64,000 nt of DNA from Alphaproteobacteria bacterium (GCA_035509415.1 DATJLQ010000007.1:696-64695), one strand, 5' to 3'; counted from the stretch's first letter, positions 8,619 to 63,300 are shown. Notes: generated by a model from the letters alone, not told the origin. A program made the numbers and translations.

Positions 8619-9565
8619 GGCACGGCAAAGCCCGCGATGGAATCATGAGCATAATGCGCCTCGGCTGAGCGCCATAGCACCTCGAAGCCGCGCCTTCCCT
8701 TGCGATAGATGCCGCCCTTGACCGGCGAGGACGCGCCGTCGTTGCTGCCGGTCGCGAGCAGGCCGCCCGCGCCGAGCCCCTCGAACAAGCGGCCCACGAC
8801 GGACGCCAGCGCCGCGCGGTCGAAATAGGATTCGTTGAGCACGTTCATGGCGCGGACGAGATCGGCCGGGCGCGGGAGCGGCGAGGGGTCGCGGAGATCG
8901 TGGGCGATCAGGTGGAAACGCGCATCGCGCGCGGCGAGCGCCGAGGCGCGCGGCGAGGCAAGGGTGAGCGTCTCGGCCTCGATCCTGTGGGCGCGCTCCG
9001 CCTCGAGGAGGCGCGGGAGGCGGCAGCGCTCGACGTATTGCAGGACGGCGTAATTCACCGGATAGAGCCGGAAATTCTCGCGCTCGCGCGCGACGACGTG
9101 GAACACGAAGGGCCGCGCGCCGAGCTCGAGCACGCGGCCGCCGCGGTCGAGCACCGCATGGACGCGGCCCGCGCGCAGCACGCGGAGCTCGGTGTCGTAG
9201 TCGGACGCGTAATAGTCGAGTTGGGCGTAGCGGGGTGCGAGCTTCTCGAACAGCTCGGCCGCGGTGCGCGCGTCGCTGACGCCGGCATCGTGGACCGTAA
9301 GCGGTGCGTCGGCCGCGAAGCGCTCGGCGACGAATGCCAACACACGCGCGTCGAAATCGTCGAAGCGGTGCCGTTGGGTGCGCTTATAGGCGCCGCGCGC
9401 GTCGGCGAAATGCTCGAGGATGAGCTCGGCCGCGCGCTCCGGGTCGGCGGCTTGGGCGATCTTGGCGTAGAGTGCGACCGAAATGCGCCGCCTTCCGCCG
9501 AACAGGGTGCGGAGCCGTCTCGGGTCGGCAAGCGCCTCGATGTCCTGCACTCCGGTTTTCAGCAT
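8615..9565 (-). CDS. Hypothetical protein, possibly a SAM-dependent methyltransferase. First gene of a minus-strand pair with the GT4.
   Basis: 316 aa. Weak motif-I-like LTVHDAGVSDARTAAEL followed by YYASDYD. No confident family assignment. Confidence 0.5.
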   Translation of the reverse strand: MLKTGVQDIEALADPRRLRTLFGGRRRISVALYAKIAQAADPERAAELILEHFADARGAYKRTQRHRFDDFDARVLAFVAERFAADAPLTVHDAGVSDARTAAELFEKLAPRYAQLDYYASDYDTELRVLRAGRVHAVLDRGGRVLELGARPFVFHVVARERENFRLYPVNYAVLQYVERCRLPRLLEAERAHRIEAETLTLASPRASALAARDARFHLIAHDLRDPSPLPRPADLVRAMNVLNESYFDRAALASVVGRLFEGLGAGGLLATGSNDGASSPVKGGIYRKGRRGFEVLWRSAEAHYAHDSIAGFAVP

Positions 9566-9665
9566 CGCGGCCTATGGGCGCTGGCAAGCGCGGGCGTCGG
9601 GTCGGACCGATGGTCCGCGGCGCGCGAGCCTCCGGGGAACGCGGCCGCACGCTCGAATCGCGCTT

Positions 9666-9680
9666 GTTCGTATCGTGAAC
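9666..9680. promoter_or_regulatory. Inverted repeat GTTCG-N5-TGAAC in the divergent intergenic region. The extended palindrome CTTGTTC-N7-GAACAAG spans 9663-9683.
   Basis: Seen directly. Lies about 100 bp upstream of the minus-strand gene start at 9565. Confidence 0.45.
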
Positions 9681-9909
9681 AAGCAGGGCCGGCAATAATA
9701 AAGCGCCGCCCGGGCGGGGGCACTTCCGCGCTCAAGATCGCTTCGGCGTTAGGCTTTCTCGCCGATCGGGCCGGATTGGCGCGCTTTCGGGTCCCCCGAG
9801 CGAGGCCGGCCTTTGGCTGTAAGATCCCTTGGCTCCACGCTTTTTCCGGCCGAAGGCGCCCGGCTTGGGTACGCGGACCCCTTGACGGCAGGGACGCCCA
9901 AGTGTAATC

Positions 9910-9924
9910 GTTCACGCCATGAAC
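9910..9924. promoter_or_regulatory. Inverted repeat GTTCA-N5-TGAAC upstream of the nonulosonic-acid operon.
   Basis: GTTCACGCCATGAAC, about 150 bp upstream of the ATG at 10077. Confidence 0.45.
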
Positions 9925-10038
9925 AAGGGCGCCGGAGCGGGCGCCCTCGCCCGAGAGGCGCGCGACGTTGGAGTGTTGCACGCCGTCCGATCTCGGCACC
10001 GCCACGCGTCCGTCCATGTTGGTCCGGTGAAGGCACTT

Positions 10039-10062
10039 CACCCGGACTGCGGTAGCATGGGC
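10039..10062 (+). promoter_or_regulatory. Second copy of the conserved 24-nt element, immediately upstream of the nonulosonic-acid operon.
   Basis: Located 15 nt before the ATG at 10077. Near-identical to 2439-2462. Confidence 0.5.
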
Positions 10063-10076
10063 GTCTTCTCGATTTC

Positions 10077-10739
10077 ATGAGCGAAACCTTCCTTCCCATC
10101 ATCGTCATCGGCGCGGGCGGCCACGGACGCGTGGTCGCGGACGCGCTTGCGGCCGCGGGCCGCCGCGTGCTCGGCTTTTGCGACGCCGATCCGGCGCTCG
10201 GCGGCCGCACCGTCGCCGGCCGGCCCGTGCTCGGCGGCGACGACGCGGTCGAGCGACACACGCCGGCGCACGTCGAGCTCGCCATGGGGATCGGCGCCGC
10301 GGGTCGCAAGCCTGCCGCCGCCATGGCCGAGCGCGCTGCGCTCATCGGACGTTGGCGCGCGCGCGGCTACGGGTTCGCGTCGGTGATCCATCCCTCGGCG
10401 ACGCTCGCGCGGGATTGCGCGACGGAAACGGGCCTGCAGGCCATGGCGCGCGTCGTGGTCCAAACCGGAAGCCGCCTCGGCGCCGACTGCATCCTCAACA
10501 CCTCCGCCTCGATCGATCACGATTGCATCGTGGGTGCCAACGCGCAGATCGGGCCGGGTGCCGTGCTCGGCGGTGCGGTGACCGTGGGGGAGGGCGCCTA
10601 TATCGGCATCGGTGCCACGATCCTGCAGGGCGTTACGATCGGCGCGGGCGCCGAGATCGCGGCGGGTGCCGTCGTGCTCGCGGACGTGGCCGCCGGGGCG
10701 CGCGTCATGGGAGTTCCGGCGCGCGAGGTCGCGCGATGA
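10077..10739 (+). CDS. Sugar O-/N-acetyltransferase, NeuD/PglD/LegH family (left-handed beta-helix).
   Basis: N-terminal Rossmann-like IVIGAGGHGRVVADAL followed by hexapeptide repeats (IGPGAVLGGAVTVGEGAYIGIGATILQGVTIGAGAEIAAGAVV). Confidence 0.85.
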   Translation: MSETFLPIIVIGAGGHGRVVADALAAAGRRVLGFCDADPALGGRTVAGRPVLGGDDAVERHTPAHVELAMGIGAAGRKPAAAMAERAALIGRWRARGYGFASVIHPSATLARDCATETGLQAMARVVVQTGSRLGADCILNTSASIDHDCIVGANAQIGPGAVLGGAVTVGEGAYIGIGATILQGVTIGAGAEIAAGAVVLADVAAGARVMGVPAREVAR

Positions 10740-11791
10740 AATCCTGGCGCAAATCGCTGGTCGCACCGGAGCGCACCCTGCGCCAGGCGATGGAGCTCCT
10801 CGAGGCGGAGGGGCTCCAGGTGGTGCTCGTGGCCGACGCCGAGGGCCGCCTCAAGGGTCTCATCACCGACGGCGACATCCGGCGCGGACTCCTCAACGGG
10901 TTGGCGCTCGAGGCGCCGGTGAGTGCGGTGATGAATCCGAGCCCGGTGGTCGGGCGCGTGAGCGACAGCCGCGAGCATTTGACGGCGCTCTTGCGCACCC
11001 ACGAGAAGCGCATCCACCATCTGCCGCTGCTCGACGAGGCCGGCCGCATCGTCGAGCTCTTCACGGTCGACGACATCGTCGCGGTACCCTTGCGCTCGTC
11101 GCTCGTGGTGCTGCTCGCGGGCGGGCGCGGCACGCGGCTCCGCCCACTCACCGAGGATTGCCCCAAGCCCATGCTGCGCGTCGGCGGCCGCCCGATCCTC
11201 GAGACCATCATCGGGCGCTTCCAGCTCCACGGGCTCCATCGCTTCCGCATTGCGATCAACTATCTGGGTGCGATGATCGAGGATTACTTCGGCGACGGCG
11301 CGCGGTGGGGGGCGGAGATCGAGTATTTGCGCGAATCCCAGCCGCTCGGCACCGCGGGGCCGGTCAAGCTTCTCGCACCCCGGCCGGACGAGCCGTTCTT
11401 CGTCATGAACGGCGATCTCCTCACCACGGTCAATTTCGACCATCTCATGAGGTTCCACCAGGAGCACAAGGCGCCGCTCACCATGTGCGTGAGCGAGCAT
11501 GCCTATTCCGTGCCCTACGGTGTCGCCCAGACCGCGGGCGTGTACCTCCGCGAGCTGGTCGAGAAGCCGCGCTACCGGAGCCTGGTCAATGCCGGTATCT
11601 ACGTCGCCGACCCGGACGTGCTCGATCTCATCCCGCCGGACGCCCGCTTCGACATGACCGAGCTGATCGACGCACTGCTCGCCGCGCGCCGCCCGCCGGC
11701 CGTGTTCCCGCTGCACGAATACTGGGTCGATGTGGGCGAGCGCGAGGACTACAATCGCGCGATCCAGGAATACGGCGACATTTTCGAGTAG
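10736..11791 (+). CDS. CBS-domain sugar-phosphate nucleotidyltransferase (PtmE-like).
   Basis: ATGA overlap with the upstream stop. N-terminal CBS pair. Nucleotidyltransferase motif LLAGGRGTRLRPLTEDCPKPML. Confidence 0.8.
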   Translation: MKSWRKSLVAPERTLRQAMELLEAEGLQVVLVADAEGRLKGLITDGDIRRGLLNGLALEAPVSAVMNPSPVVGRVSDSREHLTALLRTHEKRIHHLPLLDEAGRIVELFTVDDIVAVPLRSSLVVLLAGGRGTRLRPLTEDCPKPMLRVGGRPILETIIGRFQLHGLHRFRIAINYLGAMIEDYFGDGARWGAEIEYLRESQPLGTAGPVKLLAPRPDEPFFVMNGDLLTTVNFDHLMRFHQEHKAPLTMCVSEHAYSVPYGVAQTAGVYLRELVEKPRYRSLVNAGIYVADPDVLDLIPPDARFDMTELIDALLAARRPPAVFPLHEYWVDVGEREDYNRAIQEYGDIFE

Positions 11792-11819
11792 ATCGCGAAC
11801 CCGCCGCGGAGTGACGCGC

Positions 11820-12989
11820 ATGATCGACCAATTCTTCTTCCAGCTCAACAACCGGCTCCATTACGGCCTCGGCTGGAGCCGCAAGCTCGGCGCCTTCCTC
11901 CAGGAGAAGGGCTACCGCGCACCCGCCCTTCTGGTCGATGCCGGGGTCGCCGAGCGCAATCCCTATTATCGCGAGATCGCGGGCCTCGTCGCGGCGGCGG
12001 GGTTCGCCGCCCCTGAGATCCTGCTGCGCGCGACCGAGGAGCCGTCCTACGATTATCTCGACGAGGTCGCGGCGCGGGTGCGCGCGTTGCCCGCGCTCGA
12101 CGTCATCGTCGCGATCGGCGGCGGCAGCGCCCTCGACACGGCCAAGGCGGTCGCGGCGTTGCGCACCAATCCGGGCTCCGGTATCGAGTATCGCGGCTTC
12201 GACAAGATCGGCATCGCGCCGGTCGACACGATCTGCATTCCGACCACCGCCGGCACCGGGAGCGAGGTCACGATCAACGCGGTCTTCACCGACAAGCGCG
12301 AGATGCGCAAGCTCGGCATCAACGGCCGTCACATGCACGCGACCTGGGCCGTGCTCGACGCCGAATGGACCGCGAGCTGCCCCAAGAGCGTCGCCGTCTC
12401 GTCGGGCGTCGACGCGTTGGTGCACACGCTCGAAAGCTTCACGACGACCAATTCGAACCCGCTCGTGCGCGCCTTCAACCGCGAGGCGTTCCGGCTTCTC
12501 TACGAGAATCTGCCCGCCTTGGTCGAGGAGCCTGGGAACGCGGAGAAGCGCCAGCACCTGCTGCTCGCGGCCTATCTCGCGGCGGCTGGCCTGTTCAATT
12601 CGGGCTCGGGCATCGCGGGGGCACTCTCATACCCGATCGGGGTCCATTTCAAGGTGCCCCATGGGATCGGCGGCGGCATCTTCGCGGCCTCGATCGTCGC
12701 GTACAATGTCGAGCGCGGCTACCACGACTATGCCGAACTCCTCGACGTGGTCGAGCCCCATCCCGGCTGGAGCGCCGAGCGGAAGGCGCGCCGCTTCGTC
12801 GACGCGCTGCAGGCGCTGGTCGACCGGCTCGGCGTGCCGCGCCATCTCGACCAATGGGGCATCTGCCGCGCGAACCTCAAGGAGGTCGCGACCCTCATGC
12901 TGCCGCTCCAGGCGGCGTTCAACCAGAACCCGGTCGCCTTCTCCGCCGAGCGCGACGTGCCCGCGATCCTCGCGAAGCACGTCGCCTGA
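11820..12989 (+). CDS. Iron-containing alcohol dehydrogenase family protein.
   Basis: Fe-ADH fold signatures (GGGSALDTAKAVA, His-rich metal site HGIGGGIFAASI). In-frame ATG at 11820 within the longer ORF. Confidence 0.75.
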   Translation: MIDQFFFQLNNRLHYGLGWSRKLGAFLQEKGYRAPALLVDAGVAERNPYYREIAGLVAAAGFAAPEILLRATEEPSYDYLDEVAARVRALPALDVIVAIGGGSALDTAKAVAALRTNPGSGIEYRGFDKIGIAPVDTICIPTTAGTGSEVTINAVFTDKREMRKLGINGRHMHATWAVLDAEWTASCPKSVAVSSGVDALVHTLESFTTTNSNPLVRAFNREAFRLLYENLPALVEEPGNAEKRQHLLLAAYLAAAGLFNSGSGIAGALSYPIGVHFKVPHGIGGGIFAASIVAYNVERGYHDYAELLDVVEPHPGWSAERKARRFVDALQALVDRLGVPRHLDQWGICRANLKEVATLMLPLQAAFNQNPVAFSAERDVPAILAKHVA

Positions 12990-13045
12990 GCGGCACCGCC
13001 GGCATTCCCGCAACCGTCTATTCATCGAGCGCACGAGGAAAAACC

Positions 13046-14236
13046 ATGGCCGGCTATGAAGTGTTCGGCGAGGAAGAGCGCCGCGCGATCAACGAGATTT
13101 TCGACCTCAACGGCGGCATCCTGTTCGCCCACGGCTTCGACGCCCTCCGGAAGGGCGTCTACCGCGTGCGCGAGTTCGAGCGCGCCTTCGCGACGCGTCT
13201 CGGCGCCAAGCACGCCCAGGCGGTTTCGTCCGGGACCGCCGCGATCAAGGTGGCGCTTCAGGCGCTCGGCGTCGGGCGCGGCGACGAGGTGATCACCCAG
13301 TCCTTCACCTTCGTCGCAACCGTCGAGGCGATCCTCGAGACCGGCGCCAAGCCGGTGATCGTCGACATCGACGACACGCTGAACATGGACCCGCGCGCGT
13401 TCGAGGCGGCGATCACGCCCAAGACCAAGGCGGTGGTGCCGGTGCACATGATGGGCGAGGCGGCGGCGCTCGACGAAATCGTCGCCATCGCGCGGCGCCA
13501 CAAGATCCTGGTCATGGAGGACACCGCCCAGGCGCTCGGGGCGCGCTACAAGGGCCGCATGCTCGGCACCATCGGCGACATCGCCGCCTTCAGCACCGAC
13601 GCGGGCAAGACCATCAACACGGGCGAGGGCGGGCTCGTGGTCACCAACGAGGATGCGCTCTACGAGCGCGCGCGCGGTCTCCACGATCACGGCCACGAAT
13701 ACAGCAAGACCCTCGGGCGCGGTCAGGAGGGGGCGATCTGCGTCGGCTTCAACTTCCGCATGACCGAGCTCCAGGGTGCGGTCGGCCTGGCGCAGCTCGC
13801 GAAGCTCGACATGATCGTCGGGCGCCAGCGCGAGAACAAGGCGAAGCTCATGGCGCGCCTCAGGAAGCTGCCGCTCAAGTTCCGCCGCAGCCTGGATGGC
13901 GCGGGCGATCTCTCCGACACGATCGTGTTCTTCCTCGCGAGCTCCGCCAAGGCGAACGCTTTCGTCGCCGAGATGGCGAAGGAGGGGCTGGGGACGAAGA
14001 ACCTGCCCGACGCGGTGCGTTGGCATTTCGCGCGCCATTGGCAGCACATGTTCGAGGCGACCGGCTATTACCGCGACAGCTACCGGAGCGAATGGCGCGC
14101 CTCGGCCGATCTCCTCGAGCGCGCGGTCGCGATCCCGGTCATGGTCAAGATGGACGACGCGCGCATCGACACCGTGGCGTCCAAGCTCGAATCGATCACC
14201 GAGCGCGTCGTCTCGTCGAACGAGCCCGCCGCTTGA
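13046..14236 (+). CDS. DegT/DnrJ/EryC1/StrS-family PLP-dependent aminotransferase or dehydratase.
   Basis: Family-typical sequence (TGEGGLVVTNEDALYERARGLHDHG, FNFRMTELQGAVGLAQLAKLD). The upstream ORF extension is a frame artefact. Confidence 0.8.
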   Translation: MAGYEVFGEEERRAINEIFDLNGGILFAHGFDALRKGVYRVREFERAFATRLGAKHAQAVSSGTAAIKVALQALGVGRGDEVITQSFTFVATVEAILETGAKPVIVDIDDTLNMDPRAFEAAITPKTKAVVPVHMMGEAAALDEIVAIARRHKILVMEDTAQALGARYKGRMLGTIGDIAAFSTDAGKTINTGEGGLVVTNEDALYERARGLHDHGHEYSKTLGRGQEGAICVGFNFRMTELQGAVGLAQLAKLDMIVGRQRENKAKLMARLRKLPLKFRRSLDGAGDLSDTIVFFLASSAKANAFVAEMAKEGLGTKNLPDAVRWHFARHWQHMFEATGYYRDSYRSEWRASADLLERAVAIPVMVKMDDARIDTVASKLESITERVVSSNEPAA

Positions 14237-14955
14237 CGCTTCTCGCCTTCATTCCCGCGCGCGGCGGCTCAAAAGGAATCCCGCGCAAGAACATGGCGCT
14301 TCTCGCGGGCCGGCCGCTGCTCGGCTATACGCTCGCCGCGGCCAAGGCGTCGCGCGCGGTCTCCGAGATTTTCGTCTCGACCGACGATGACGAGATCGCG
14401 GCATTCTCCGAGGCCGAAGGCGTCGCGGTTCCCTATCGCCGCCCGAAGGCGCTCGCGACCGACACGGCACCCATCATCGACGCGGTCGTCGACGCGCTCG
14501 ATTGGCGCATGCGCGCGGGGCTGAGCGAGCCGGCTGCGATCGCGCTCCTGCAGCCGACCTCGCCCTTTCGTGCCGCCGCCGATATCGACCGCGCGGCTGC
14601 GGAATTCGAGGCGTCGGGCCGCGAGAGCCTGGTCGCGGTGCACGAAATGGCCGAGCATCCTTACGAATGCGTGCGCGCGAGCGGGGAGGGCTGGAGCCCG
14701 CTCGCGACGCCGCCCACCCCCGCGACGCGACGCCAGGATTACGGCCCCGAGCGCTTTCTTTTCATCAACGGCGCCCTCTATATCGCGACGCCCAGATTCC
14801 TCAGGCGGCGCCACGCCTTCGTCGTTCCCGGCGAGACGGCGCTCTTCGAGATGGACCCGGTGCGGGGCGCCGACATAGACGATCTCGACGATTGGCATCG
14901 CGCCGAGGCGCTGCTCGCCTCGCCCGCGCTCAAGGGGCGCTTGGCGCTCGCCTAG
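14233..14955 (+). CDS. Acylneuraminate cytidylyltransferase-family protein (CMP-nonulosonic acid synthetase, NeuA/LegF-like).
   Basis: TTG start overlaps the upstream stop (TTGA). N-terminal LAFIPARGGSKGIPRKN signature of the CMP-NeuAc/KDO synthetase family. Confidence 0.75.
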   Translation: MTLLAFIPARGGSKGIPRKNMALLAGRPLLGYTLAAAKASRAVSEIFVSTDDDEIAAFSEAEGVAVPYRRPKALATDTAPIIDAVVDALDWRMRAGLSEPAAIALLQPTSPFRAAADIDRAAAEFEASGRESLVAVHEMAEHPYECVRASGEGWSPLATPPTPATRRQDYGPERFLFINGALYIATPRFLRRRHAFVVPGETALFEMDPVRGADIDDLDDWHRAEALLASPALKGRLALA

Positions 14956-14985
14956 AACGACACGCTCGCTTGGAAGGACGACGAG

Positions 14986-16140
14986 ATGCCGAGCCGCGAC
15001 AACGACCCCTATTTCCGCCATCTGCGCCGCGTCGTCGACGAAAGCGATCCTGCGCTTTCGGACGACGCGAAGTCGCGCGCCTGGGCCGAGGGCGAGCGAG
15101 TCCACGCCGAGGTGCTGGCGCCGTTGAAGCTCGCGGGGCGCACGATCCTGCTGGTGGGTGGGGCGGGCTATATCGGGACGCCGCTCACGGCGGCCTTGCT
15201 CGAGCGCGGCTACGGGGTCGTGTGCCTCGATTTGCTGCTCTACCGCAACCAAGCGTGCGTCACGCCGTTTCTCGGCCATCCACGTTATCGCTTCGTGCGC
15301 GGCGATCTCGCCGACGCGGCCGCAATCGAGCGCGCGCTCGAGGGGGTGAGCGACGCGATCCTGCTCGCGGGCCTGGTCGGCGACCCCATCACCGCGCGTT
15401 ATCCCGAGCATGCCCAGGCGATCAACGACGAGGGCATGGCTTCGCTGATCGCGCGGCTCAAGGGGCGCGGGCTCAACAAGCTCGTGTTCGTCTCGACCTG
15501 CTCGAACTACGGCGAAATTCCCGCCGACGCCACGGCGGACGAGGAATTCCCGTTGAAGCCTCTCTCGCTCTACGCCAAGGCCAAGGTGCGCATGGAGGGC
15601 CTCGTGCGCGACGCGCGCGGCAACGCGGACTATTGCGCGACCGTGTTGCGTTTCGCGACCGCCTTCGGCCTCTCGGGCCGCATGCGCTTCGACCTCACGG
15701 TGAGCGAGTTCACGCGCGACCTGTTCGCGGGCCGCACCCTCGAGGTCTACGACGCCGATACCTGGCGCCCCTATTGCCATGTGCGCGATTTCGCGCGCGC
15801 CCTCATCCGCGTGCTCGAGGCGCCGCGCGCGGACGTGGCCTTCGAGGTGTTCAACGCGGGCGGCGACGTGAACAATTTCACCAAGGGCATGATCGTGGAC
15901 GCGGTGCGCAAAGAGCTGCCGCGGGCGCAGTTCAAGTTCGTCGAAGGCGGGCGCGACCGGCGCAATTACCGCGTCGACTTCGCCAAGATCCGACGCGTGC
16001 TCGGCTTCGAGCCGCGCGTCACGGTGGCGGACGGGATTCGCGAGCTGGTCGCGGCCTTGGGCCAGGGCTTCTTCGCCGATTACGACGACCGGCTCGATTT
16101 CTACCGCAACCGGGAAATCGCCTACCAACGCCCGCGATGA
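14986..16140 (+). CDS. NAD-dependent epimerase/dehydratase (extended SDR), a candidate nucleotide-sugar 4,6-dehydratase.
   Basis: GxxGxxG (LVGGAGYIGTPL) and YxxxK (YAKAK) motifs. 384 aa. Confidence 0.75.
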   Translation: MPSRDNDPYFRHLRRVVDESDPALSDDAKSRAWAEGERVHAEVLAPLKLAGRTILLVGGAGYIGTPLTAALLERGYGVVCLDLLLYRNQACVTPFLGHPRYRFVRGDLADAAAIERALEGVSDAILLAGLVGDPITARYPEHAQAINDEGMASLIARLKGRGLNKLVFVSTCSNYGEIPADATADEEFPLKPLSLYAKAKVRMEGLVRDARGNADYCATVLRFATAFGLSGRMRFDLTVSEFTRDLFAGRTLEVYDADTWRPYCHVRDFARALIRVLEAPRADVAFEVFNAGGDVNNFTKGMIVDAVRKELPRAQFKFVEGGRDRRNYRVDFAKIRRVLGFEPRVTVADGIRELVAALGQGFFADYDDRLDFYRNREIAYQRPR

Positions 16141-17360
16141 GCAGCATTTCTTCCAGTCCCGTGACGAAGCCGACGCTCGACTCCGCGACCGATCCTGCGG
16201 TGGCCGCCGTGCTCGCGGCGTTGCGCCAAGTGGCCGGTGCTGCCGCGAATGCGCCGATCGGCCTTCATGAGCCCGAATTCGCGGGCCGCGAATGGGATTA
16301 CGTCAAATCCTGCCTCGATACGGGGTGGGTCTCGTCGGCGGGCGCGTTCGTCGACCGGTTCGAGCGCGAGCTCGCGGACTACACGGGCACGCGTCATTGC
16401 ATCGCGACGGTCAACGGCACGGCGGCACTCCATCTGGCGTTGCGCTTGGCCGGCGTCGAAGCGGGCGACGAGGTGATCGTGCCGACCATCGGCTTCATCG
16501 CGACCTGCAACGCGGTTTCCTATTGCGGCGCCGTGCCTCATCTCGTCGATAGTAACGAAACGACTCTCGGCATGGATCCGGCGAAGCTCGGCTCCTGGCT
16601 CGACGAGATCGCCGAGCGTCGCACCGGCGGCGCGCTCTTGAACCGCCGCACGGGACGGCGCCTCGCGGCAATCGTGCCGATGCACACCTTCGGCCATCCG
16701 GTCGAGATCGATGCGCTCCTCGAGCTCGCCGCGCGTTGGAACATTCCGCTCGTCGAGGACGCGGCCGAATCCTTGGGCTCGACCTATCGCGGGCGCCATT
16801 GCGGCAGCTTCGGGCGTTTGGCGGCGCTGAGTTTCAACGGCAACAAGATCGTGACGACCGGGGGCGGCGGGGCGGTGCTCACCGACGATGCCGAGCTCGC
16901 GCGCCGCGCGAAGCATCTTTCGACCACGGCCAAGCTCTCGCACCGCTGGCGCTTCGACCATGACGAGGTCGGCTACAATTACCGCCTTCCGAACTTGAAC
17001 GCGGCCTTGGGCTGCGCACAGCTCGAGCGCATGCCGTCCTTCCTCGCGCGGAAGCGCCGCCTCGCGGAATCCTACCGCGCCGCCTTCGCCGGCATTGCGG
17101 GCGTGCGCGTCTTCGAGGAGCCGGCCCACGCGCAGAGCAACTACTGGCTCAACGTCATCCTGGTCGAGCCTAAGCTGCGCGACCCGATCCTCGCCGCCAC
17201 CAACGAGGCCGGGCTCATGACGCGTCCCGCTTGGACGCCGATGCATCGCCTCCCCATGTACGAGTCGGCGCCGCGTATGGACGATCTCTCGGTCGCTGAG
17301 GAGATCGAGCGTCGCCTGATCAATCTTCCGAGCAGCGCGGGCCTCGCGGGCCATGACTAG
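16137..17360 (+). CDS. LegC/PseC-type nucleotide-sugar aminotransferase (DegT family).
   Basis: ATGA overlap. Motifs WDYVKSCLDTGWVSSAG and SFNGNKIVTTGGGGAVLT are typical of UDP/GDP-4-keto-6-deoxy sugar aminotransferases. Confidence 0.85.
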   Translation: MSSISSSPVTKPTLDSATDPAVAAVLAALRQVAGAAANAPIGLHEPEFAGREWDYVKSCLDTGWVSSAGAFVDRFERELADYTGTRHCIATVNGTAALHLALRLAGVEAGDEVIVPTIGFIATCNAVSYCGAVPHLVDSNETTLGMDPAKLGSWLDEIAERRTGGALLNRRTGRRLAAIVPMHTFGHPVEIDALLELAARWNIPLVEDAAESLGSTYRGRHCGSFGRLAALSFNGNKIVTTGGGGAVLTDDAELARRAKHLSTTAKLSHRWRFDHDEVGYNYRLPNLNAALGCAQLERMPSFLARKRRLAESYRAAFAGIAGVRVFEEPAHAQSNYWLNVILVEPKLRDPILAATNEAGLMTRPAWTPMHRLPMYESAPRMDDLSVAEEIERRLINLPSSAGLAGHD

Positions 17361-18567
17361 TCCGACGCCCCGGAAAGTCTGCGTCGTCACCGGCTCGCGC
17401 GCGGAATACGGCATCCTGCGCCCGCTGCTCGCGGCCCTCAAGGCAGACCCGGGCTTCGAGCTCCGGCTCGTCGTGTGCGCGATGCATCTCTCGGCCACCT
17501 TCGGCCTCACCTATCGCGAGATCGAGGCGGACGGCTTCGCGATCGACCGCCAGGTCGAGATGGCGCCCGACGCGGACACGGCCGCCGGGGTGACGAAGTC
17601 GATCGGCCGCGGCTGCATCGGCTTCGCCGACGCCTTTGCCGAGCTCAAGCCCGATCTCCTGGTTCTTCTGGGCGACCGCTACGAGATTCTGGCCGCGGCG
17701 GCGGCGGCGCTCGTCGCGCGCATTCCGGTCGCGCACATCCACGGCGGCGAGCTCACCGAGGGCGCCATCGACGACGCGATCCGGCACGCGGTCACCAAGA
17801 TGTCCCATCTCCATTTCTGCGCCGCCGAGACCTATCGCCAACGCGTGATCCAGCTCGGCGAGGCGCCCGAGCGCGTATTCACCGTGGGCGCGCTCGGCCT
17901 CGACAATCTCGCTGCCATCCCGCTCATGAGCCGGCACGAGCTCGAGACCGATCTCGATTTCCGCTTCGGCGACCGGATGGTGGTCGTGACTTACCATCCG
18001 GCGACCCTCGAGGCGGGCGATCCCGCGGCCGGGCTCGCCGCACTCCTCAAGGCGCTCGACCGGTTCCCCGAATTGCGCGCGGTGATCACCTATCCCAACG
18101 CGGATGCGGGGGCGAACGCGCTCATCGACGGGATCGAGGCCTACGCCGCGCGGCGCAAGGGCCGCGTCCTCCTGGTGAAGTCGCTCGGCACCCGGCGTTA
18201 TCTGAGCCTCGTGGCCCAGGCCGCCGCAGTTATCGGCAATTCGTCGAGCGGCATCATCGAGGTTCCGTCCTTCCGCGTGCCCACGGTCAATCTCGGCACG
18301 CGCCAACGTGGCCGCCTGCGCGCGGCGTCGATCGTCGATTGCGCCGAGGAGCCGGAGGCGATCCTGCGCGCGATCCAGACCGCACTCTCGTCCGAGTTCC
18401 GCGCAGGGCTCATGGGCATGGCGAATCCCTATGGCGACGGCAAGACCGCGCCGCGCATTCTCGAGCGCCTGCGCGCGGCCGATCTCGAGGCGCTGCCGAT
18501 GAAGCGCTTTTACGATCTGCCGCGCGTGACGGCGGACGCGCGCGAGACGGCGGCGGCGAATCCATGA
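17353..18567 (+). CDS. neuC: UDP/GDP-N-acetylglucosamine 2-epimerase (hydrolysing), NeuC/LegG family.
   Basis: Motifs KVCVVTGSRAEYGILRPLL and HIHGGELTEGAIDDAIRHAVTKMSHLHF are characteristic of NeuC. Confidence 0.85.
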   Translation: MTSPTPRKVCVVTGSRAEYGILRPLLAALKADPGFELRLVVCAMHLSATFGLTYREIEADGFAIDRQVEMAPDADTAAGVTKSIGRGCIGFADAFAELKPDLLVLLGDRYEILAAAAAALVARIPVAHIHGGELTEGAIDDAIRHAVTKMSHLHFCAAETYRQRVIQLGEAPERVFTVGALGLDNLAAIPLMSRHELETDLDFRFGDRMVVVTYHPATLEAGDPAAGLAALLKALDRFPELRAVITYPNADAGANALIDGIEAYAARRKGRVLLVKSLGTRRYLSLVAQAAAVIGNSSSGIIEVPSFRVPTVNLGTRQRGRLRAASIVDCAEEPEAILRAIQTALSSEFRAGLMGMANPYGDGKTAPRILERLRAADLEALPMKRFYDLPRVTADARETAAANP

Positions 18568-19637
18568 CGCGCACGCTCGTCATCGCCGAGGCCGGGGTCA
18601 ATCATAACGGCTCGGCCGAGCTCGCGCTCGAGCTCGTCGACGTCGCGGCGGCGGCGGGCGCCGACGTGGTCAAGTTCCAGACCTTCCGCGCCGACGCGCT
18701 CGTCACGCGCGACGCCCCCAAGGCCGCGTACCAGAAGGAGCGCACTGCCGGCGACGATCAATACGCGATGCTCAAGGCGCTCGAGCTCGACCGCGCGATG
18801 CATGAGCGGCTCGCCGCGCGCTGCACGGAGAAGGGGATCGAGTTTCTCTCGACCGCCTTCGACCTCGAGAGCCTGGACCTCGTGGTCGCGACGGGCGTCA
18901 AGCGCCTCAAGATTCCATCGGGCGAGATCACCAACGGCCCGTTCCTCCTGGCCGCCGCGCGCAAGAAGCTTCCCATGGTGCTTTCGACCGGCATGTCGAC
19001 CCTCGACGAGATCGAGGAAGCGCTCGGCGTCGTCGCCTTCGGCCTCCTCGCGCCGTCGCAATCGAAGCCGACCCGCGCCGCTTTCGCCGAGGCCTTTCGC
19101 GCCCCCGAGGCCGCGGCGGCATTGCGCGCCAAAGTGACGCTGCTTCATTGCACCACGAGCTATCCGGCCGCGCTCGCGGACGTGAATTTGCGCGCCATGG
19201 ACACGATGGCCGAGCGCTTCGGCCTTCCGGTCGGCTATTCCGACCACAGCGAGGGGATCGAAGTGGCGCTCGCGGCGGTGGCGCGCGGGGCCACCACCCT
19301 CGAGAAGCACTTCACGCTCTCGCGCGATTTGCCGGGCCCGGACCACAAAGCCTCCCTCGAGCCCGCCGAGCTCAGGGCGATGATCGCGGGCATCCGGCGC
19401 GTCGAGGCGTGTCTCGGCAGTGCCGCCAAGGCGCCGACCGCGGCCGAGCGTCCGATGCAGGGGATCGCGCGTCATAGCCTCGTCGCCGCGTGCGCGATCG
19501 CGGCGGGCGAGGTGTTCAGCGAAAGGAACCTCGCCTCGAAGCGGCCCGGCACCGGCCTTTCGCCCATGGGCTATTGGGACCTGCTCGGCCGCCGCGCCGC
19601 GCGCGCCTACGCGCCCGACGAGCTGATCGACCAATGA
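18564..19637 (+). CDS. neuB: N-acylneuraminate (nonulosonic acid) synthase NeuB/LegI with C-terminal SAF domain.
   Basis: ATGA overlap. N-terminal LVIAEAGVNHNGS and a complete SAF/antifreeze-like C-terminus. The upstream ORF extension is an artefact. Confidence 0.9.
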   Translation: MTRTLVIAEAGVNHNGSAELALELVDVAAAAGADVVKFQTFRADALVTRDAPKAAYQKERTAGDDQYAMLKALELDRAMHERLAARCTEKGIEFLSTAFDLESLDLVVATGVKRLKIPSGEITNGPFLLAAARKKLPMVLSTGMSTLDEIEEALGVVAFGLLAPSQSKPTRAAFAEAFRAPEAAAALRAKVTLLHCTTSYPAALADVNLRAMDTMAERFGLPVGYSDHSEGIEVALAAVARGATTLEKHFTLSRDLPGPDHKASLEPAELRAMIAGIRRVEACLGSAAKAPTAAERPMQGIARHSLVAACAIAAGEVFSERNLASKRPGTGLSPMGYWDLLGRRAARAYAPDELIDQ

Positions 19638-19648
19638 TTTCGAGCCCC

Positions 19649-20863
19649 TCAATCGCGCGGCTTTGCGCCGTCGGAATAAACCGCGTCGCCGAGGAGGGCC
19701 CGCGCGGCCGTGAGCGCCGTGGGCTCGCGCGAGGCGCCGGGGCGGGCGAGGAAAGCGCGCGCATAGGCGTCGTAGGCCGCGTCGTCGAGCGTGGCCCAAT
19801 CGCGCGGCAACGCGGGCTCGGCCATGTCGAGCCGCGGCGCGCCGAGCCAGCTTGCGAAGCGCGCGATCGTGACGCCGTAGGGAGTCGCTTCCATCGCGGC
19901 GCCCGCGAGCAGCAGCACCGGCTTCCGGAACGCGACCGCGAAGCCGAGCGAGGTCGAGCAATGGGCGAGCACGAGACGCGCCCCCCGTACGAGCGCCGCC
20001 GTGCGGCCTTGCGCGATCTCGCGCCCGCCGAAGAGCTCGGCGGACCCGTAGCGCGCCTTGGGATGGGCGGCCACGACGACGTTGAGCCCGGTCTCGCGCT
20101 CGATGCGGTCGAAGGCGTTGCGCAGCAGCTCGAAATAGCGCTCCGGTGCGATGGGCGGCGGCGCCGCGCCGATGAGCGCGAAATCGGGATGGGATACGAA
20201 CATCTCATCGAGGAACACGGCATAGGCGCCGTCGGGTGCGGGCTCGGGCCGCGCCATCTCGGCGCGCGCGAGGCCCATGTCGAAGCTCTCGACGTCGACC
20301 ACGCGCGCGCGCGCGGGATGGGGGAAATGGGCCGTAAGCGCGCCGGGCGCATCCCCCGCCTTGAGCCAGATTGCCGGTGCGGCGAGTGCCGCGTAGCCGA
20401 GATCCCGGTCGAAGCGCCGGCACGCGAAACGCTTTGCGAGATGAGCCCAAAGGAGCGCATCCTGCGCGCGCGCGTGGAGATATTCATCCATGCCGCGCGT
20501 CGTCTTCCAGGGGCGGCGATGGAAAGTCGGGAGGGCGCCTTGGGTGAAGACCGCGTAGCGCACGCCCTTTCGCGCGAAGAGCCGGTAGAGCCAGGCGCTC
20601 TCATGATTGAGCGCCACGTCGGCCAGGACCGCGTCATGATCGGTGAGGCGCGCGAGATGGCTTTCGGCCGCCGCGACCGTTTGAGGCCGCACGGTGCTGG
20701 GGAAGAGAGGGGCTGCGGCCCCATCGACCGTGAGGCCGACCGGCCCATGGAGCTCGACGATCTCGACCTCGAGCCCGCGGCGCCGTGCCTCGTCGAGGCC
20801 GAGACGGGCCCAATCCCGCTCGGCGAACACGCCGCCATAGACGAAGACGATCCGGCTTGCCAT
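19649..20863 (-). CDS. Hypothetical protein. Possibly a GT-B-like glycosyl (ulosonic-acid) transferase.
   Basis: About 404 aa from the internal ATG at 20863. The ATG at 20941 would overlap the divergent ABC gene. The C-terminal half has Rossmann-like VVVAAHPKARYG...LVLAHCSTSLGFAVAFRKPVLLL. No confident family. Confidence 0.5.
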   Translation of the reverse strand: MASRIVFVYGGVFAERDWARLGLDEARRRGLEVEIVELHGPVGLTVDGAAAPLFPSTVRPQTVAAAESHLARLTDHDAVLADVALNHESAWLYRLFARKGVRYAVFTQGALPTFHRRPWKTTRGMDEYLHARAQDALLWAHLAKRFACRRFDRDLGYAALAAPAIWLKAGDAPGALTAHFPHPARARVVDVESFDMGLARAEMARPEPAPDGAYAVFLDEMFVSHPDFALIGAAPPPIAPERYFELLRNAFDRIERETGLNVVVAAHPKARYGSAELFGGREIAQGRTAALVRGARLVLAHCSTSLGFAVAFRKPVLLLAGAAMEATPYGVTIARFASWLGAPRLDMAEPALPRDWATLDDAAYDAYARAFLARPGASREPTALTAARALLGDAVYSDGAKPRD

Positions 20864-20940
20864 CGCGCGCGAGCCCCCGAGGACGCATGCCGCGCCCGTC
20901 ATATCGCACTCTCCGTGCGCCGCGCCAGGGGAATTCGGCA

Positions 20941-22779
20941 ATGAGGAACCGGCTCGCCGGCTATGTCGCCTTCGCGCGCCAATGCGCGACGCTGCTCGCC
21001 GACAACAAGGCGATCTTCGCCGTCTTCCTCGTGGTGTCGCTCCTGGGGGCGCTCACCGAGGGCCTCACCATCTCGCTCCTGGTGCCGATCCTCGACAACC
21101 AGGGCGGCCAGGGCTCGTTCGCCGGCGTTCCCTATTTCGGCGCCATCGCCGGCCTGTTCGGCGAGGTTTCGCCGAGCGAGCGCATCGAGATCGCCGCGAT
21201 CGCGATCGCGGTCCTGATCGTGCTCCGGAACCTGCTCCAATTCTCGGTCGACGCGTTGAGTGCCGTGATCCCGCTGCGCCTCCAGGAGAATTTCGCCAAC
21301 CGCGGCTACCGCGCGCTGATGGAGGTCGAGATCGGCTTCATCCACGCGCGCGAATACGGCGTGCTGTTCAACGGCGTGAGCGGCTGGGCCAAGGGTGTCA
21401 CGATGCTGCTCACCAACGTCGCGACCGTGGTGTGGGGAGCGCTCATCGTCGCGATCTACCTGGTCATGATGCTCGCGATCTCGGTGCCGCTCACGTTGCT
21501 CTCGATCGCGTTCATGGGCGGAATGTCGCTGGTGCTGCGCTGGCTGACCTCGGGGCCGCTCCGGCGCGCGGGCAAGCGCTCGAACGACGCGGTCGGCCGG
21601 GTCAACCAGCTGCTCATGGAATCGGTGGGCGGGATGAAGGTGATCCGCCTCGCGAGCGCCGAGACGACCATGATCGGCGCGTTCGGCGCCGCGGTCAGGA
21701 ACTCGCTCGAGGCCGAGCGCGGGGCGGCCAAGATCCAGGCGACCGTCCAGCCCGTGATGACGGCGGGCGCGGGACTGTTCATCTGCGCGCTCCTGCTTGG
21801 GAACGCGGCCTTCAACGCGTCGAACCCGAACGCCTGGGTCGGCTCGATCCTCCTGTTCCTGTTCCTGCTCTACCGCCTGGTGGGACCGATCGGCAACATC
21901 AACGGCGCGCGCGCGCGTATCGTCAAATACATCCATTCCTTCGACATGCTCAACGAATTCTACCGCGAGACCGCGGCGGCGCGGCAGCCCAACGGCACGC
22001 GCGCCTTCGAGGCCTGGCGCCGCGACATCGCGTTCGACCGCGTTTCCTTCGCCTACGCCAAGGCGGACGCGCCCGCGCTCCACGACGTCTCGACGCGCAT
22101 CGAGCGCGGCACGATGGTCGCGATCGTCGGCCCGTCGGGGGCCGGGAAGACAACCTTCATCTCGCTGCTCGCGCGCCTCTACGACCCGCGGGAGGGGAGC
22201 GTGCGCATCGACGGCACCGACCTCCGCGAATTCGACGTGCGCGGCTGGCGCCACCATTTGGCCGTGGTGACCCAGGACACCTTCATCTTCAACGACACCG
22301 CCGCGCGCAACATCGCGTTCGGGCGCGAGAACGCGACCCTCGACGAGATCCGCAACGCGGCCCGGCTCGCGGCCGCGGACGAGTTCATCGCCGGCATGCC
22401 CGAGGGCTACGACACGGTGCTCGGCGATCGCGGCGTGCGCCTTTCGGGCGGTCAGCAGCAGCGCATCGCGATCGCGCGCGCGGTGCTCGCGAACCCGGAC
22501 CTATTGATCCTCGACGAGGCCACGAGCCACCTCGATACCTTCACCGAGCGCGCGATCCAGGACGCGATCGATCGTGTGTCGCGCGAATGCACCGTGGTGG
22601 TGATCGCGCACCGCCTCTCGACCGTGCGCCGCGCCGACAAGGTGATCGTGATGGAGGGCGGACGCATCGTCGAGGAGGGATCGCACAAGGCGCTCATGGC
22701 GCGCCGCGGCCTCTATTGGGAGATGGTCGAGCATCAGCGCTTCGACATGTCGGACGAAGCGAGCGCGGCGTCGGCATGA
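20941..22779 (+). CDS. ABC transporter, fused permease/ATP-binding protein (type I exporter, MsbA-like).
   Basis: Six predicted TM helices, then Walker A (GPSGAGKTT), the ABC signature (LSGGQQQRIAIARA) and Walker B (ILDEATSHLD). Confidence 0.85.
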   Translation: MRNRLAGYVAFARQCATLLADNKAIFAVFLVVSLLGALTEGLTISLLVPILDNQGGQGSFAGVPYFGAIAGLFGEVSPSERIEIAAIAIAVLIVLRNLLQFSVDALSAVIPLRLQENFANRGYRALMEVEIGFIHAREYGVLFNGVSGWAKGVTMLLTNVATVVWGALIVAIYLVMMLAISVPLTLLSIAFMGGMSLVLRWLTSGPLRRAGKRSNDAVGRVNQLLMESVGGMKVIRLASAETTMIGAFGAAVRNSLEAERGAAKIQATVQPVMTAGAGLFICALLLGNAAFNASNPNAWVGSILLFLFLLYRLVGPIGNINGARARIVKYIHSFDMLNEFYRETAAARQPNGTRAFEAWRRDIAFDRVSFAYAKADAPALHDVSTRIERGTMVAIVGPSGAGKTTFISLLARLYDPREGSVRIDGTDLREFDVRGWRHHLAVVTQDTFIFNDTAARNIAFGRENATLDEIRNAARLAAADEFIAGMPEGYDTVLGDRGVRLSGGQQQRIAIARAVLANPDLLILDEATSHLDTFTERAIQDAIDRVSRECTVVVIAHRLSTVRRADKVIVMEGGRIVEEGSHKALMARRGLYWEMVEHQRFDMSDEASAASA

Positions 22780-23771
22780 CCGCATTTCCGAAGCGCGCCG
22801 CCGTCACCACGGCGCCGTTCGGCGCCCTCGACCCCGCGCCCCTCGAGCTCGCGGCGGCGGCGGGTGTCGCGCTCACGCTCAATCCCTACGGCCGGCGCCT
22901 CCAGGCGCACGAGGTCGCGGGCTTCCTCAAGGATCATCCGGTCGTGATCGCGGGCACCGAGCCGCTCAACGAAGCGGTGATGGACGCGTGCCCGGGGCTC
23001 AAGGCGATCTGCCGGGTCGGGGTCGGCCTCGACAGCGTGGATTTGAGTGCCGCGCGGCGGCGCGGCATCGCCGTCTCCTACACGCCCGACGCGCCCTCGA
23101 CCGCGGTCGCCGAGCTCGCGGTCGGCCTCATTCTCGATCTCTTGCGCGGCGTGGCGCCCGCGGACCGCGCGCTGCGCCAGGGCGAATGGACGCGCACGAC
23201 CGGCGCGCGCATCGCCCGCTCGACCGTGGGCGTGCTCGGCGTGGGACGCATCGGGCGGCGCGTCATCCACCATCTCCTCGGCGGATTCCCGGGCGTGCGC
23301 GTTCTCGCGCACGATCTCAATCCCGACCTGTCCCTCGACGGCGTCGAATGGGTCGACAAGGAGACGATCTATCGCACGGCGGACGTCGTCACCGTGCATC
23401 TGCCGCTCACCGCCGCGACCAAGGACCTGATCGGCGCGCGCGAGCTCGCCGCGATGCGGCCCTCGGCGGTGCTGGTGAACACGGCGCGTGGCGGCATCGT
23501 GAACGAGCGGGACCTTGCCGCGGCGCTTGCCCAAGGCGTCATCCAGGCCGCGGCGATTGACGTTTTCGAGCACGAGCCCTACAAGGGCCCGCTCGCTCAG
23601 TCGCCGCGTACGCTCCTGACCTGCCACATGGGCTCGATGACCGCCGATTGCCGCGCCCAGATGGAGACGGAGGCGATGCGCGAGGCGATCCGCTTTCTCG
23701 CGGGCGAGCCCTTCGCGTCGCCGGTACCGGACGAGGAATATGCCATTGCCGAGCAGCTTCACCGGGCTTGA
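22776..23771 (+). CDS. D-isomer-specific 2-hydroxyacid dehydrogenase (phosphoglycerate dehydrogenase-like).
   Basis: ATGA overlap. NAD-binding motif VGVLGVGRIGRRV and catalytic R/E/H motifs. The long ORF 20982-23771 is a frame fusion artefact. Confidence 0.8.
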   Translation: MTAFPKRAAVTTAPFGALDPAPLELAAAAGVALTLNPYGRRLQAHEVAGFLKDHPVVIAGTEPLNEAVMDACPGLKAICRVGVGLDSVDLSAARRRGIAVSYTPDAPSTAVAELAVGLILDLLRGVAPADRALRQGEWTRTTGARIARSTVGVLGVGRIGRRVIHHLLGGFPGVRVLAHDLNPDLSLDGVEWVDKETIYRTADVVTVHLPLTAATKDLIGARELAAMRPSAVLVNTARGGIVNERDLAAALAQGVIQAAAIDVFEHEPYKGPLAQSPRTLLTCHMGSMTADCRAQMETEAMREAIRFLAGEPFASPVPDEEYAIAEQLHRA

Positions 23772-24447
23772 GCGCGGCCTCGAGGCCGCGATCCTCGATT
23801 TCGACGGCGTCGTCGTCGAATCGACCGGGATCAAGACCGAAGCGTTCCGCGCGCTGTTCGCCGATTTCCCCGCGCGCGTCGACGCGATCGCGGCCCTCCA
23901 CCAGCGCCATGCGGGCGTCGACCGCTACGCCAAGTTCGACATGATTTATCGCGACATTCTCGGCCTGCCGCTTTCGGCCGAGACGCGGCGCGCGTTGGGC
24001 GAACGCTTCGCGCGTTTGGTCGAGGAGCGGGTCGTCGCCTGCCCGATGGTCGTCGGGGCCGGCGAGCTGCTGGCTTCCCTCGAGGGGCGCGTGCCGGTCG
24101 CAATCGCCTCGGCGACGCCCCAGGCCGAGATCGAGCGCATCGTCGCCAAACGCGGGCTCGGGCGATTCTTCGCCGCGGTACGCGGAAGCCCGCCGGACAA
24201 GACGGGCATCGTGCGGGCACTCCTGGCCGAGCGGGGCTGGAACCCATCGGCGACGCTCATGATCGGGGACGCGATCGCGGATTTCGAGGCGGCGCGCGCG
24301 AGCGGCCTCGCCTTCATCGGCCGCGCCGTGCCGGGCGAGCGCCATCCGTTCCCGGACGGCGTCGCGGTGGTCGACGATCTGACCGGCCTCGCCGCGACCC
24401 TTCTGGGCGATGCGCGCGGCACCATGCGCGCGAGGGCGATTTCATGA
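23740..24447 (+). CDS. HAD-superfamily hydrolase (phosphatase or beta-phosphoglucomutase-like).
   Basis: Motif I ILDFDGVVVEST plus later HAD motifs. The predicted start overlaps the upstream gene by 32 nt, so the true start may be downstream. Confidence 0.65.
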   Translation: MPLPSSFTGLERGLEAAILDFDGVVVESTGIKTEAFRALFADFPARVDAIAALHQRHAGVDRYAKFDMIYRDILGLPLSAETRRALGERFARLVEERVVACPMVVGAGELLASLEGRVPVAIASATPQAEIERIVAKRGLGRFFAAVRGSPPDKTGIVRALLAERGWNPSATLMIGDAIADFEAARASGLAFIGRAVPGERHPFPDGVAVVDDLTGLAATLLGDARGTMRARAIS

Positions 24448-25322: not shown

Positions 25323-25332
25323 GGAGCGAAGC

Positions 25333-27221: not shown

Positions 27222-27266
27222 GCGCGCCCAGATCGTTCGCCCGGATTCCCCGACCGAGGAGCCACT

Positions 27267-28358: not shown

Positions 28359-28361
28359 AAG

Positions 28362-31024: not shown

Positions 31025-31097
31025 CGCGCGCCCCGAAATCCGAAGAATTCCAGCGATCATTGCGCGCCCGAGCGCGCGCCCCCAGAGGAGAACGACC

Positions 31098-31973: not shown

Positions 31974-31990
31974 GGCGCGCACCCATTCCC

Positions 31991-33644: not shown

Positions 33645-33647
33645 GCG

Positions 33648-36267: not shown

Positions 36268-36311
36268 CGCGCAGGACCGCGCAACAAGAAACGGAAACGG
36301 GCCGCATCGAG

Positions 36312-58982: not shown

Positions 58983-60671
<1,689 letters not shown>

Positions 60672-63000: not shown

Positions 63001-63002
63001 GA

Positions 63003-63254: not shown

Positions 63255-63300
63255 GCAATACTATCCTTTTGAACGCGGTGACCGTATGGGGAGGGCGGGC

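Follow-up and report, generated by a model that had tools for sequence, protein, structure and literature searches.

Nine co-directional genes at positions 10,077 to 19,637 of a 64,000-nucleotide stretch of DNA from an alphaproteobacterium (GCA_035509415.1, DATJLQ010000007.1:696-64695; the whole stretch is referred to here as the window) probably form a conserved and undescribed variant of the legionaminic acid (Leg) cassette which, to judge from its sequence, makes a nonulosonic acid (NulO) with a third amino group. NulOs decorate flagella, capsules, lipopolysaccharide (LPS) and S-layers and shape immune and phage recognition, and the well-described bacterial 5,7-diamino forms are, to our knowledge, all 9-deoxy. 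That the nine genes (designated g1 to g9, Table 1) serve as one conserved cassette for a 5,7-diamino NulO activated with cytidine monophosphate (CMP), with a Leg scaffold and three linked changes, seems to us about evenly balanced, and it is rather likely that the product is an extra-aminated NulO of some kind.

Reading frames were judged by third-position GC and families by Pfam and NCBIfam profiles. Each of the nine frames is backed by third-position GC, together they fill the interval exactly, and the two profile collections agree on the families that had been named in an earlier reading of this DNA (the original prediction). Six of the genes are of the type found in the Leg pathway linked to guanosine diphosphate (GDP). 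The N-acetyltransferase g1 scores 208 bits on TIGR03570 (cutoff 160.8) and matches PF17836 and PF00132; g2 joins two PF00571 domains to PF00483; g7 scores 534.5 bits on the LegC model TIGR04181 (cutoff 420) and is called a 'LegC family aminotransferase' in NCBI record HUC60470.1; g8 scores 476 bits on the NeuC model TIGR03568 (cutoff 235.9) and 100 bits on WecB; and g9 scores 459.8 bits (cutoff 399.65) on the NeuB model TIGR03569, which does not tell LegI from NeuB. The CMP-synthetase g5 matches PF02348, and its sole equivalog match is PseF, at 126 bits and under the cutoff of 205.7. The reference for comparison was a canonical alphaproteobacterial Leg cluster on a Rhizobium plasmid, as annotated by the Prokaryotic Genome Annotation Pipeline (PGAP), with the order LegB-LegC-NeuC-NeuB-acetyltransferase-nucleotidyltransferase-Gfo/Idh/MocA-cytidylyltransferase-short-chain dehydrogenase/reductase (SDR); Azospirillum gives another example. 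Identity to the Rhizobium counterparts is 59% for g7, 55% for g9, 45% for g2 (over its full length), 44% for g1, 41% for g8 and 35% for g5. The CBS-nucleotidyltransferase represented by g2 is the accepted marker of the GDP-linked Leg route, its domain architecture having been described for PtmE/LegX, and use of GTP by g2 is predicted.

By these profile matches the operon is real, belongs to NulO synthesis and follows the GDP-linked logic of the Campylobacter-type Leg pathway, as originally proposed. A pseudaminic route is excluded because PseB, PseG and PseH are absent from the nine genes, the PseI model reaches only 240 bits on g9 (cutoff 340), and NeuC and LegC are both present and pass their cutoffs; g6 scores 19.9 bits against the PseB model. 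Comparison with the Leg and Pse profile sets and with the Rhizobium cluster bears out the general Leg assignment for six genes and breaks down for the other three, since g6 fails the LegB model and g3 and g4 lie outside canonical Leg. Hence the claim that the operon encodes the full enzymatic logic of canonical Leg does not stand: the LegB slot is held by a Cj1427-like SDR that lacks the acid/base pair of a dehydratase. The original prediction also gave no explanation for the iron-dependent alcohol dehydrogenase (Fe-ADH, g3) and the second DegT aminotransferase (g4), a pair absent from canonical alphaproteobacterial Leg clusters, which have LegB and PtmF/PtmA and no Fe-ADH or KdnA-like gene.

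The NCBI gene models agree on the starts, and that of g1 is identical in HUC60464.1. The TTG start read for g5 is plausible because the protein begun there retains the N-terminal IPARGGSKG motif and NCBI record HUC60468.1 (240 aa) uses the same codon, although other gene callers place an ATG at 14293. Six consecutive overlapping junctions had been counted, and five of the eight do overlap (ATGA at g1/g2, g6/g7 and g8/g9, TTGA at g4/g5, and 8 nt at g7/g8), interrupted by gaps of 28 nt (g2/g3), 56 nt (g3/g4) and 30 nt (g5/g6). The rate is ordinary for this genome, because 4-nt overlaps occur at 12 of the 39 same-strand junctions in the window, compared with 4 of 8 in the cassette. Translational coupling was dropped as a special feature of the operon, and stoichiometric co-translation does not follow from the junctions.

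The departure in the LegB slot is clear from the profiles and motifs. The enzyme g6 had been read as an SDR dehydratase, and the superfamily is correct, but the catalytic residues of a dehydratase are missing. On the LegB model TIGR04180 it scores 46.8 bits against a cutoff of 475, whereas two true LegBs named by PGAP score 524 and 484 bits; the g6-like proteins of other loci likewise fall short of the cutoff, and g6 is only 28% identical to Rhizobium LegB over 163 residues. The motif STCSNYG is invariant in g6 and the 16 orthologues recovered (41-67% identity), where RmlB and DesIV have STDEVYG, Cj1427 has NTNSGYG, and LegB has STSEVYG, a version that we take to be GMD-like with the catalytic Glu. 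By these measures g6 is not LegB. Its best sequence match in the Protein Data Bank (PDB) is 6vo6 (Cj1427), at 145 bits and 32% identity, with the next at 93 bits, and the motif RMR(F/L)DL is common to both. An AlphaFold model of g6 (pLDDT 93, pTM 0.92) places 6vo6 and 6vo8, labeled as Cj1427 bound to NADH and GDP-heptose, at the top of a fold search with target-normalized TM-scores (TMt) of 0.90-0.93. Cj1427 is described as the GDP-D-glycero-D-manno-heptose C4 dehydrogenase of Campylobacter jejuni, which oxidizes C4 of the GDP-sugar without dehydration and has its NADH recycled by alpha-ketoglutarate. We propose from sequence and model that g6 is a GDP-sugar C4 dehydrogenase that carries out no 4,6-dehydration, leaving the 6-hydroxyl in place.

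In every locus that holds both, g6 lies directly upstream of LegC, and as the occupant of the LegB slot it presumably provides LegC with its keto substrate. No other candidate for LegB or a dehydratase was found among the genes of the 64-kb window, where a second SDR at 24444-25322 likewise lacks the acidic residues. Most orthologues share with g6 a confidently modeled two-helix N-terminal extension of ~50 residues (residues 1-50, window 14986-15140) that is missing from Cj1427 and from the shorter g6-like proteins of two related loci (L007 and L013; L numbers are our own handles for loci). In Halorubrum PV6, a structurally proven Leg producer, the N-terminus of LegB implied by primers does not look g6-like, which neither refutes nor proves the assignment.

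The other departures are g3 and g4, proposed here as an alcohol-to-aldehyde oxidase and the transaminase that it would feed. The oxidoreductase g3 matches PF00465 and PF25137 and contains GGGS together with the metal ligands of D..H and PHG, with a Tyr in ALSYPIG (window ~12630) instead of the canonical third His metal ligand, a residue that is kept in generic Fe-ADHs such as FucO and the methanol and propanediol dehydrogenases. The Tyr variant is present in all pattern-readable Fe-ADHs beside a KdnA-like aminotransferase (38 of 42 among the matches listed, L004-L086), and these span several subfamilies with 30-100% identity to g3. The best PDB match of g4 is KdnA (5k8b), in a 285-bit alignment that begins at residue 1 and spans almost the entire protein, and the next matches, perosamine synthases, reach 198 bits. 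Identity of g4 to KdnA is ~47% in the alignment, compared with 55-60% to 5k8b for true KdnA orthologues, and JGI labels many g4 homologues 'Kdo8N transaminase' (KdnA; Kdo8N is the 8-amino form of 3-deoxy-D-manno-octulosonic acid, Kdo). On these comparisons g4 is a member of the KdnA family, in a clade apart from the true KdnA orthologues.

Gene contexts gathered from homologue look-ups, one genome scan and one metagenome scan place this clade. Average-linkage clustering of 88 KdnA-like sequences gave three clades. The clade of g4 contains all 36 loci with NulO genes together with three contigs too short for context, such that g4-clade proteins lie in NulO cassettes, and not in a Kdo/LPS-core context, in 36 of 36 readable cases. 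The second, middle clade (44 loci, L050-L094; 41-50% identity to g4) has no NulO genes nearby, and the third consists of true KdnA orthologues in five loci. Many middle-clade genes stand beside a Tyr-variant Fe-ADH, and an assignment of these loci as plain KdnA/KdnB was rejected, as the Fe-ADH neighbors are of generic types rather than KdnB and true KdnA occurs in the five loci only.

The nine-gene cassette recurs in Hyphomicrobiales, often circularly permuted to NeuB-AcT-PtmE-FeADH-KdnA-like-CMP-SDR-LegC-NeuC (AcT, acetyltransferase), and rearranged or extended versions are found in Desulfovibrionaceae, in a deltaproteobacterial genome and at a locus adjoining genes for flagellin and Maf. In Nitrospirae, locus L005 contains the core genes together with g3, g4 and g5 and has no g6-like SDR within 21 kb. 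The g3 gene is always found within an AcT-PtmE-FeADH module, in related loci a g5-type gene lies directly 3' of g4, and cross-phylum identity is 56-75% for g3 and 52-77% for g4. Canonical LegB was found in none of the 36 loci with a g4-clade aminotransferase, and whenever an SDR accompanies g4 it is Cj1427-like. Among 72,556 plasmids, several of which carry canonical Leg clusters, there was no g4 homologue at 1e-60; for g6 the plasmids held distant relatives only and no further cassettes, with uninformative haloarchaeal and Cupriavidus matches.

The strongest sign of what g3 does comes from its replacement. An alcohol oxidase is present in 31 of the ~33 g4-clade loci with enough upstream sequence, and it is a g3-type Fe-ADH in 25 and a GMC oxidoreductase of ~500 residues in the six that lack the Fe-ADH; in the five GMC loci inspected it invariably occupies the slot between PtmE and the transaminase. 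Since an Fe-ADH has been exchanged for an unrelated alcohol oxidase, the step is likely the conversion of an alcohol to a carbonyl that feeds the transaminase. Only two loci (L036 and L099/L100) have neither oxidase despite enough upstream sequence, and L099/L100 has a radical S-adenosylmethionine (SAM)/SPASM gene after PtmE. Three loci are of Neu type (L045, L048 and L049), in which the KdnA-like transaminase lies beside NeuC and NeuB and there is no LegC, PtmE or SDR. Of these, L045 and L048 have the Fe-ADH, L045 and L049 have the g5-type CMP-synthetase, and L049 begins too near the transaminase to show an upstream oxidase; the sugar of all three certainly has a C9 hydroxyl.

Additional genes are inserted in some cassettes. 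Genes for B12-binding radical-SAM and radical-SAM/SPASM proteins and a methyltransferase are added in L004, L005, L024 and L101, the last from Paramagnetospirillum caucaseum, and these insertions fall between the genes of the Fe-ADH and the KdnA-like enzyme; L029 adds a deacetylase and a formyltransferase. The sequence covered for L101 shows the order g6-LegC-NeuC-NeuB-AcT-PtmE and ends with no g3 or g4 in it. A 2026 preprint describes unassigned CMP-ulosonic acids in Magnetospirillum, detected by mass spectrometry, where they gave a C10 marker fragment and lost ammonia, and from their gene content the B12-radical-SAM variants may account for these C10 compounds. The same preprint describes free-amine NulOs in Kuenenia, where the cluster contains a deacetylase and a formyltransferase.

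Taken together, the enzymes could be arranged in the following route. The nucleotidyltransferase g2 would make a GDP-hexosamine, g6 would oxidize its C4 without removing the 6-OH, g7 (LegC) would transaminate C4, g1 would N-acetylate the new amine, and g8 would hydrolyze the GDP linkage and epimerize C2. Condensation with phosphoenolpyruvate by g9 would then give a 5,7-diacetamido NulO that still bears its C9-OH, and this primary alcohol would be oxidized to the aldehyde by g3 and converted to the amine by g4, as KdnB and KdnA do at C8 of Kdo, before g5 turns the sugar into its CMP donor. The free sugar predicted by this route is 5,7-diacetamido-9-amino-3,5,7,9-tetradeoxy-non-2-ulosonic acid (C13H23N3O8, 349.149 Da), presumably used in the surrounding glycan locus of LPS or capsule type. 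We infer every step of this scheme, in which C4 is oxidized without 6-deoxygenation and C9 is then oxidized and transaminated to the 9-amino product, and would say that the case for it is as good as the case against. Its appeal is that the three departures from Leg explain each other, because the oxidase and the transaminase depend on a terminal CH2OH, the group that a true LegB would take away. A broader and more tentative proposal, which we hold with rather less than even confidence, is that this is a widespread pathway (Alphaproteobacteria, Desulfovibrionaceae, Nitrospirae and others) to NulOs with a third amino group at C9. In such a pathway glutamate and alpha-ketoglutarate may provide a redox link between the Cj1427-like C4 dehydrogenase and LegC, and a terminal-alcohol oxidase, either a Tyr-variant Fe-ADH or a GMC enzyme, would partner the KdnA-clade transaminase.

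Several observations weigh against amination at C9. The kinship of g3 to KdnB (5k8c) is distant, since within the same superfamily it amounts to only 85 bits and generic Fe-ADHs score 130-149 bits. The canonical counterparts of LegC and NeuB, at 55-59% identity, use 6-deoxy substrates, g6 might dehydrate by a non-canonical mechanism in which its conserved Cys could in principle be the base, and a 4,6-dehydratase may be encoded elsewhere in the genome, of which 64 kb was seen. In two loci (L102 and L103) g6-type and LegC genes are paired although no KdnA-like gene lies within 10 kb of them, and the three changes are therefore not strictly coupled. Nor do the data single out one position for the amination, which on chemical grounds could also take place at C8 or C4 of a true Leg.

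The first alternative is that the cassette is a canonical one, in which g6, though divergent, still functions as a 4,6-dehydratase, the product is CMP-Leg5Ac7Ac, and g3 and g4 are accessory enzymes that do not act on the NulO. Six of the nine genes have orthologues in canonical Leg clusters, g6 is in the position of LegB beside LegC, and the pairs of g6-type and LegC genes with no g3 or g4 nearby fit as well. We nevertheless consider it unlikely, as the Glu (and Asp) found in all characterized 4,6-dehydratases compared is missing from g6, which falls together with a C4 oxidase that does not dehydrate, and an unrelated role is improbable for g3 and g4, which are fixed in the cassette and whose conservation across phyla (56-75% identity) exceeds that of the core enzymes. 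Somewhat less probable again is that g6 does dehydrate and that g3 and g4 act on a secondary position of Leg, at C8 (or C4), giving a 5,7,8- (or 4,5,7-) triamino sugar. The evidence for an oxidase and a transaminase holds equally for such a product, Fe-ADH and GMC enzymes can oxidize secondary alcohols and DegT enzymes usually take ketones, but the nearest characterized relative of g4 acts on a terminal aldehyde, and the replacement of LegB by a Cj1427-like enzyme beside g4 would be left unexplained. Although the order PtmE-FeADH-KdnA-like-CMP synthetase matches the canonical PtmE-PtmF-LegF-PtmA by position, it is very doubtful that g3 and g4 replace PtmF and PtmA to supply a hexosamine phosphate or GDP-hexosamine entering the pathway, given that the pair is also present in the Neu-type loci L045 and L048, which need no special precursor, that g4 is closest to an ulosonic-acid transaminase, and that the window has PtmF- and PtmA-like genes of its own.

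If amination at C9 is correct, a route to 9-amino NulOs, which would be zwitterionic or open to further acylation, adds a new class of sugar, and it would explain the many environmental 'Leg' clusters that have no LegB nameable by annotation pipelines. The oxidase and transaminase logic of Kdo8N would then be a general and portable module for ulosonic acids.

The window has a G+C content of ~70%, and its closest relatives by protein match are Hyphomicrobiales (Rhodopseudomonas, Afipia and Xanthobacteraceae). The cassette lies within a surface-glycan locus of ~40 kb (Table 1), with sulfate-activation genes, methyltransferases and GT4 glycosyltransferases on its 5' side and an ABC exporter, a second ulosonic-acid-like gene set and then lptD/lptG/lptF on its 3' side. 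A scan of 9400-21200 for promoters and terminators gave no signal exceeding the shuffle background.

Table 1. Coordinates of the nine cassette genes, of other features of the window, and of GMC oxidoreductase genes in related loci.
Feature	Position	Strand	Description
g1	10077-10739	+	NeuD/PglD-type hexapeptide N-acetyltransferase (LegH role), 220 aa
g2	10736-11791	+	CBS-pair and nucleotidyltransferase (PtmE/LegX type), 351 aa
g3	11820-12989	+	Fe-ADH-family oxidoreductase, 389 aa
g4	13046-14236	+	KdnA-family pyridoxal phosphate-dependent aminotransferase (DegT), 396 aa
g5	14233-14955	+	CMP-nonulosonate synthetase, acylneuraminate cytidylyltransferase family, 240 aa, TTG start
g6	14986-16140	+	Extended SDR in LegB slot, Cj1427-like, 384 aa
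g7	16137-17360	+	LegC-family aminotransferase, 407 aa
g8	17353-18567	+	NeuC/LegG-type hydrolyzing nucleotide-sugar 2-epimerase, 404 aa
g9	18564-19637	+	NeuB/LegI-type nonulosonate synthase with SAF domain, 357 aa
cysD and cysN/cysC	2498-5202	+	3'-Phosphoadenosine 5'-phosphosulfate synthesis, adjoining methyltransferase and GT4 genes
Protein of 430 aa	19649-20941	-	No Pfam match; convergent with neuB (g9) at 11 nt
ATP-binding cassette (ABC) exporter	20941-22779	+	Fused transmembrane and nucleotide-binding domains; directly 3' of cassette
Second ulosonic-acid-like gene set	22776-37613	+
Short NeuB-family synthase	31098-31973	+	No SAF domain; in second gene set
PtmF-like and PtmA-like oxidoreductases	34391-36267	+	Near 3' end of second gene set
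RuBisCO large-chain-like protein	47441-48562	+	373 aa; weak partial match to PF00016
IS1595-family transposase	61912-62937	-
GMC oxidoreductase	L029:8507-9988
GMC oxidoreductase	L030:7579-9072
GMC oxidoreductase	L033:4498-6051
GMC oxidoreductase	L038:7873-9366
GMC oxidoreductase	L042:8413-9990
GMC oxidoreductase	L037

The cysD and cysN/cysC neighbors hint that the glycan of the locus may be sulfated. The protein convergent with neuB has a 27% homologue within a Desulfovibrionaceae NulO cluster (L007) and might act on the sugar as its transferase or polymerase, and in L013 and L099, too, the cassette has an ABC exporter next to it. The second gene set begins with a PGDH-like 2-hydroxyacid dehydrogenase, a haloacid dehalogenase (HAD)-family protein, an SDR and a second CTP_transf_3 protein, followed by a HisC/CobD-like aminotransferase, a Gfo/Idh/MocA enzyme, a methyltransferase and a 626-aa protein of no assigned family. 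After the short NeuB come a pyruvyl transferase, a HAD protein resembling KdsC and Kdn-9-P phosphatase, and a third CTP_transf_3 protein, and the set closes with a 433-aa protein that has a weak polysialyltransferase match. From this gene content, the glycan may well include another CMP-sugar, possibly a Kdn-like one. Elsewhere in the window, the RuBisCO-like protein is probably of form IV, and over 60001-64000, where the transposase is located, G+C drops from ~69% to 56-62%.

In the open literature searched, nothing was found on triamino or 9-amino NulOs or on KdnA in a NulO context, and the comparison is with four known systems. The GDP-linked CMP-Leg pathway of C. jejuni (PtmE, LegB, LegC, LegH, LegG, LegI and LegF), known also from Tannerella forsythia and from Brevundimonas (LegX), has in common with the cassette the CBS-nucleotidyltransferase, LegC, the PglD/NeuD-type acetyltransferase, the NeuC-type epimerase, the NeuB-type synthase, the CMP-synthetase and an SDR adjoining LegC. 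It differs in that the SDR here is not LegB, PtmF and PtmA are absent from the cassette, and an Fe-ADH and a KdnA-family aminotransferase have been added. Cj1427 resembles g6 in having T-x-S in place of T-D/S-E, and a GDP-linked substrate is presumed for g6 also, but g6 has its N-terminal extension and pairs with an aminotransferase rather than with epimerases and reductases. The Kdo8N system of Shewanella oneidensis likewise places an Fe-ADH-superfamily enzyme (KdnB) and a KdnA-family aminotransferase beside a CMP-ulosonate synthetase, and its chemistry reportedly turns the terminal CH2OH of an ulosonic acid into CH2NH2 (a finding attributed to Gattis et al. 2013); here g4 belongs to a separate clade, g3 is no KdnB orthologue, and the setting is a nine-carbon cassette and not the Kdo/LPS core. 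Amination of a sugar hydroxyl by oxidation and then transamination is proven for the GMC oxidase SepI and the DegT aminotransferase SepG of septacidin biosynthesis, and the GMC enzyme of that pair parallels the alternation of Fe-ADH and GMC enzymes in the related loci, although SepI and SepG act at C4' of a heptose nucleoside natural product and not on an ulosonic acid.

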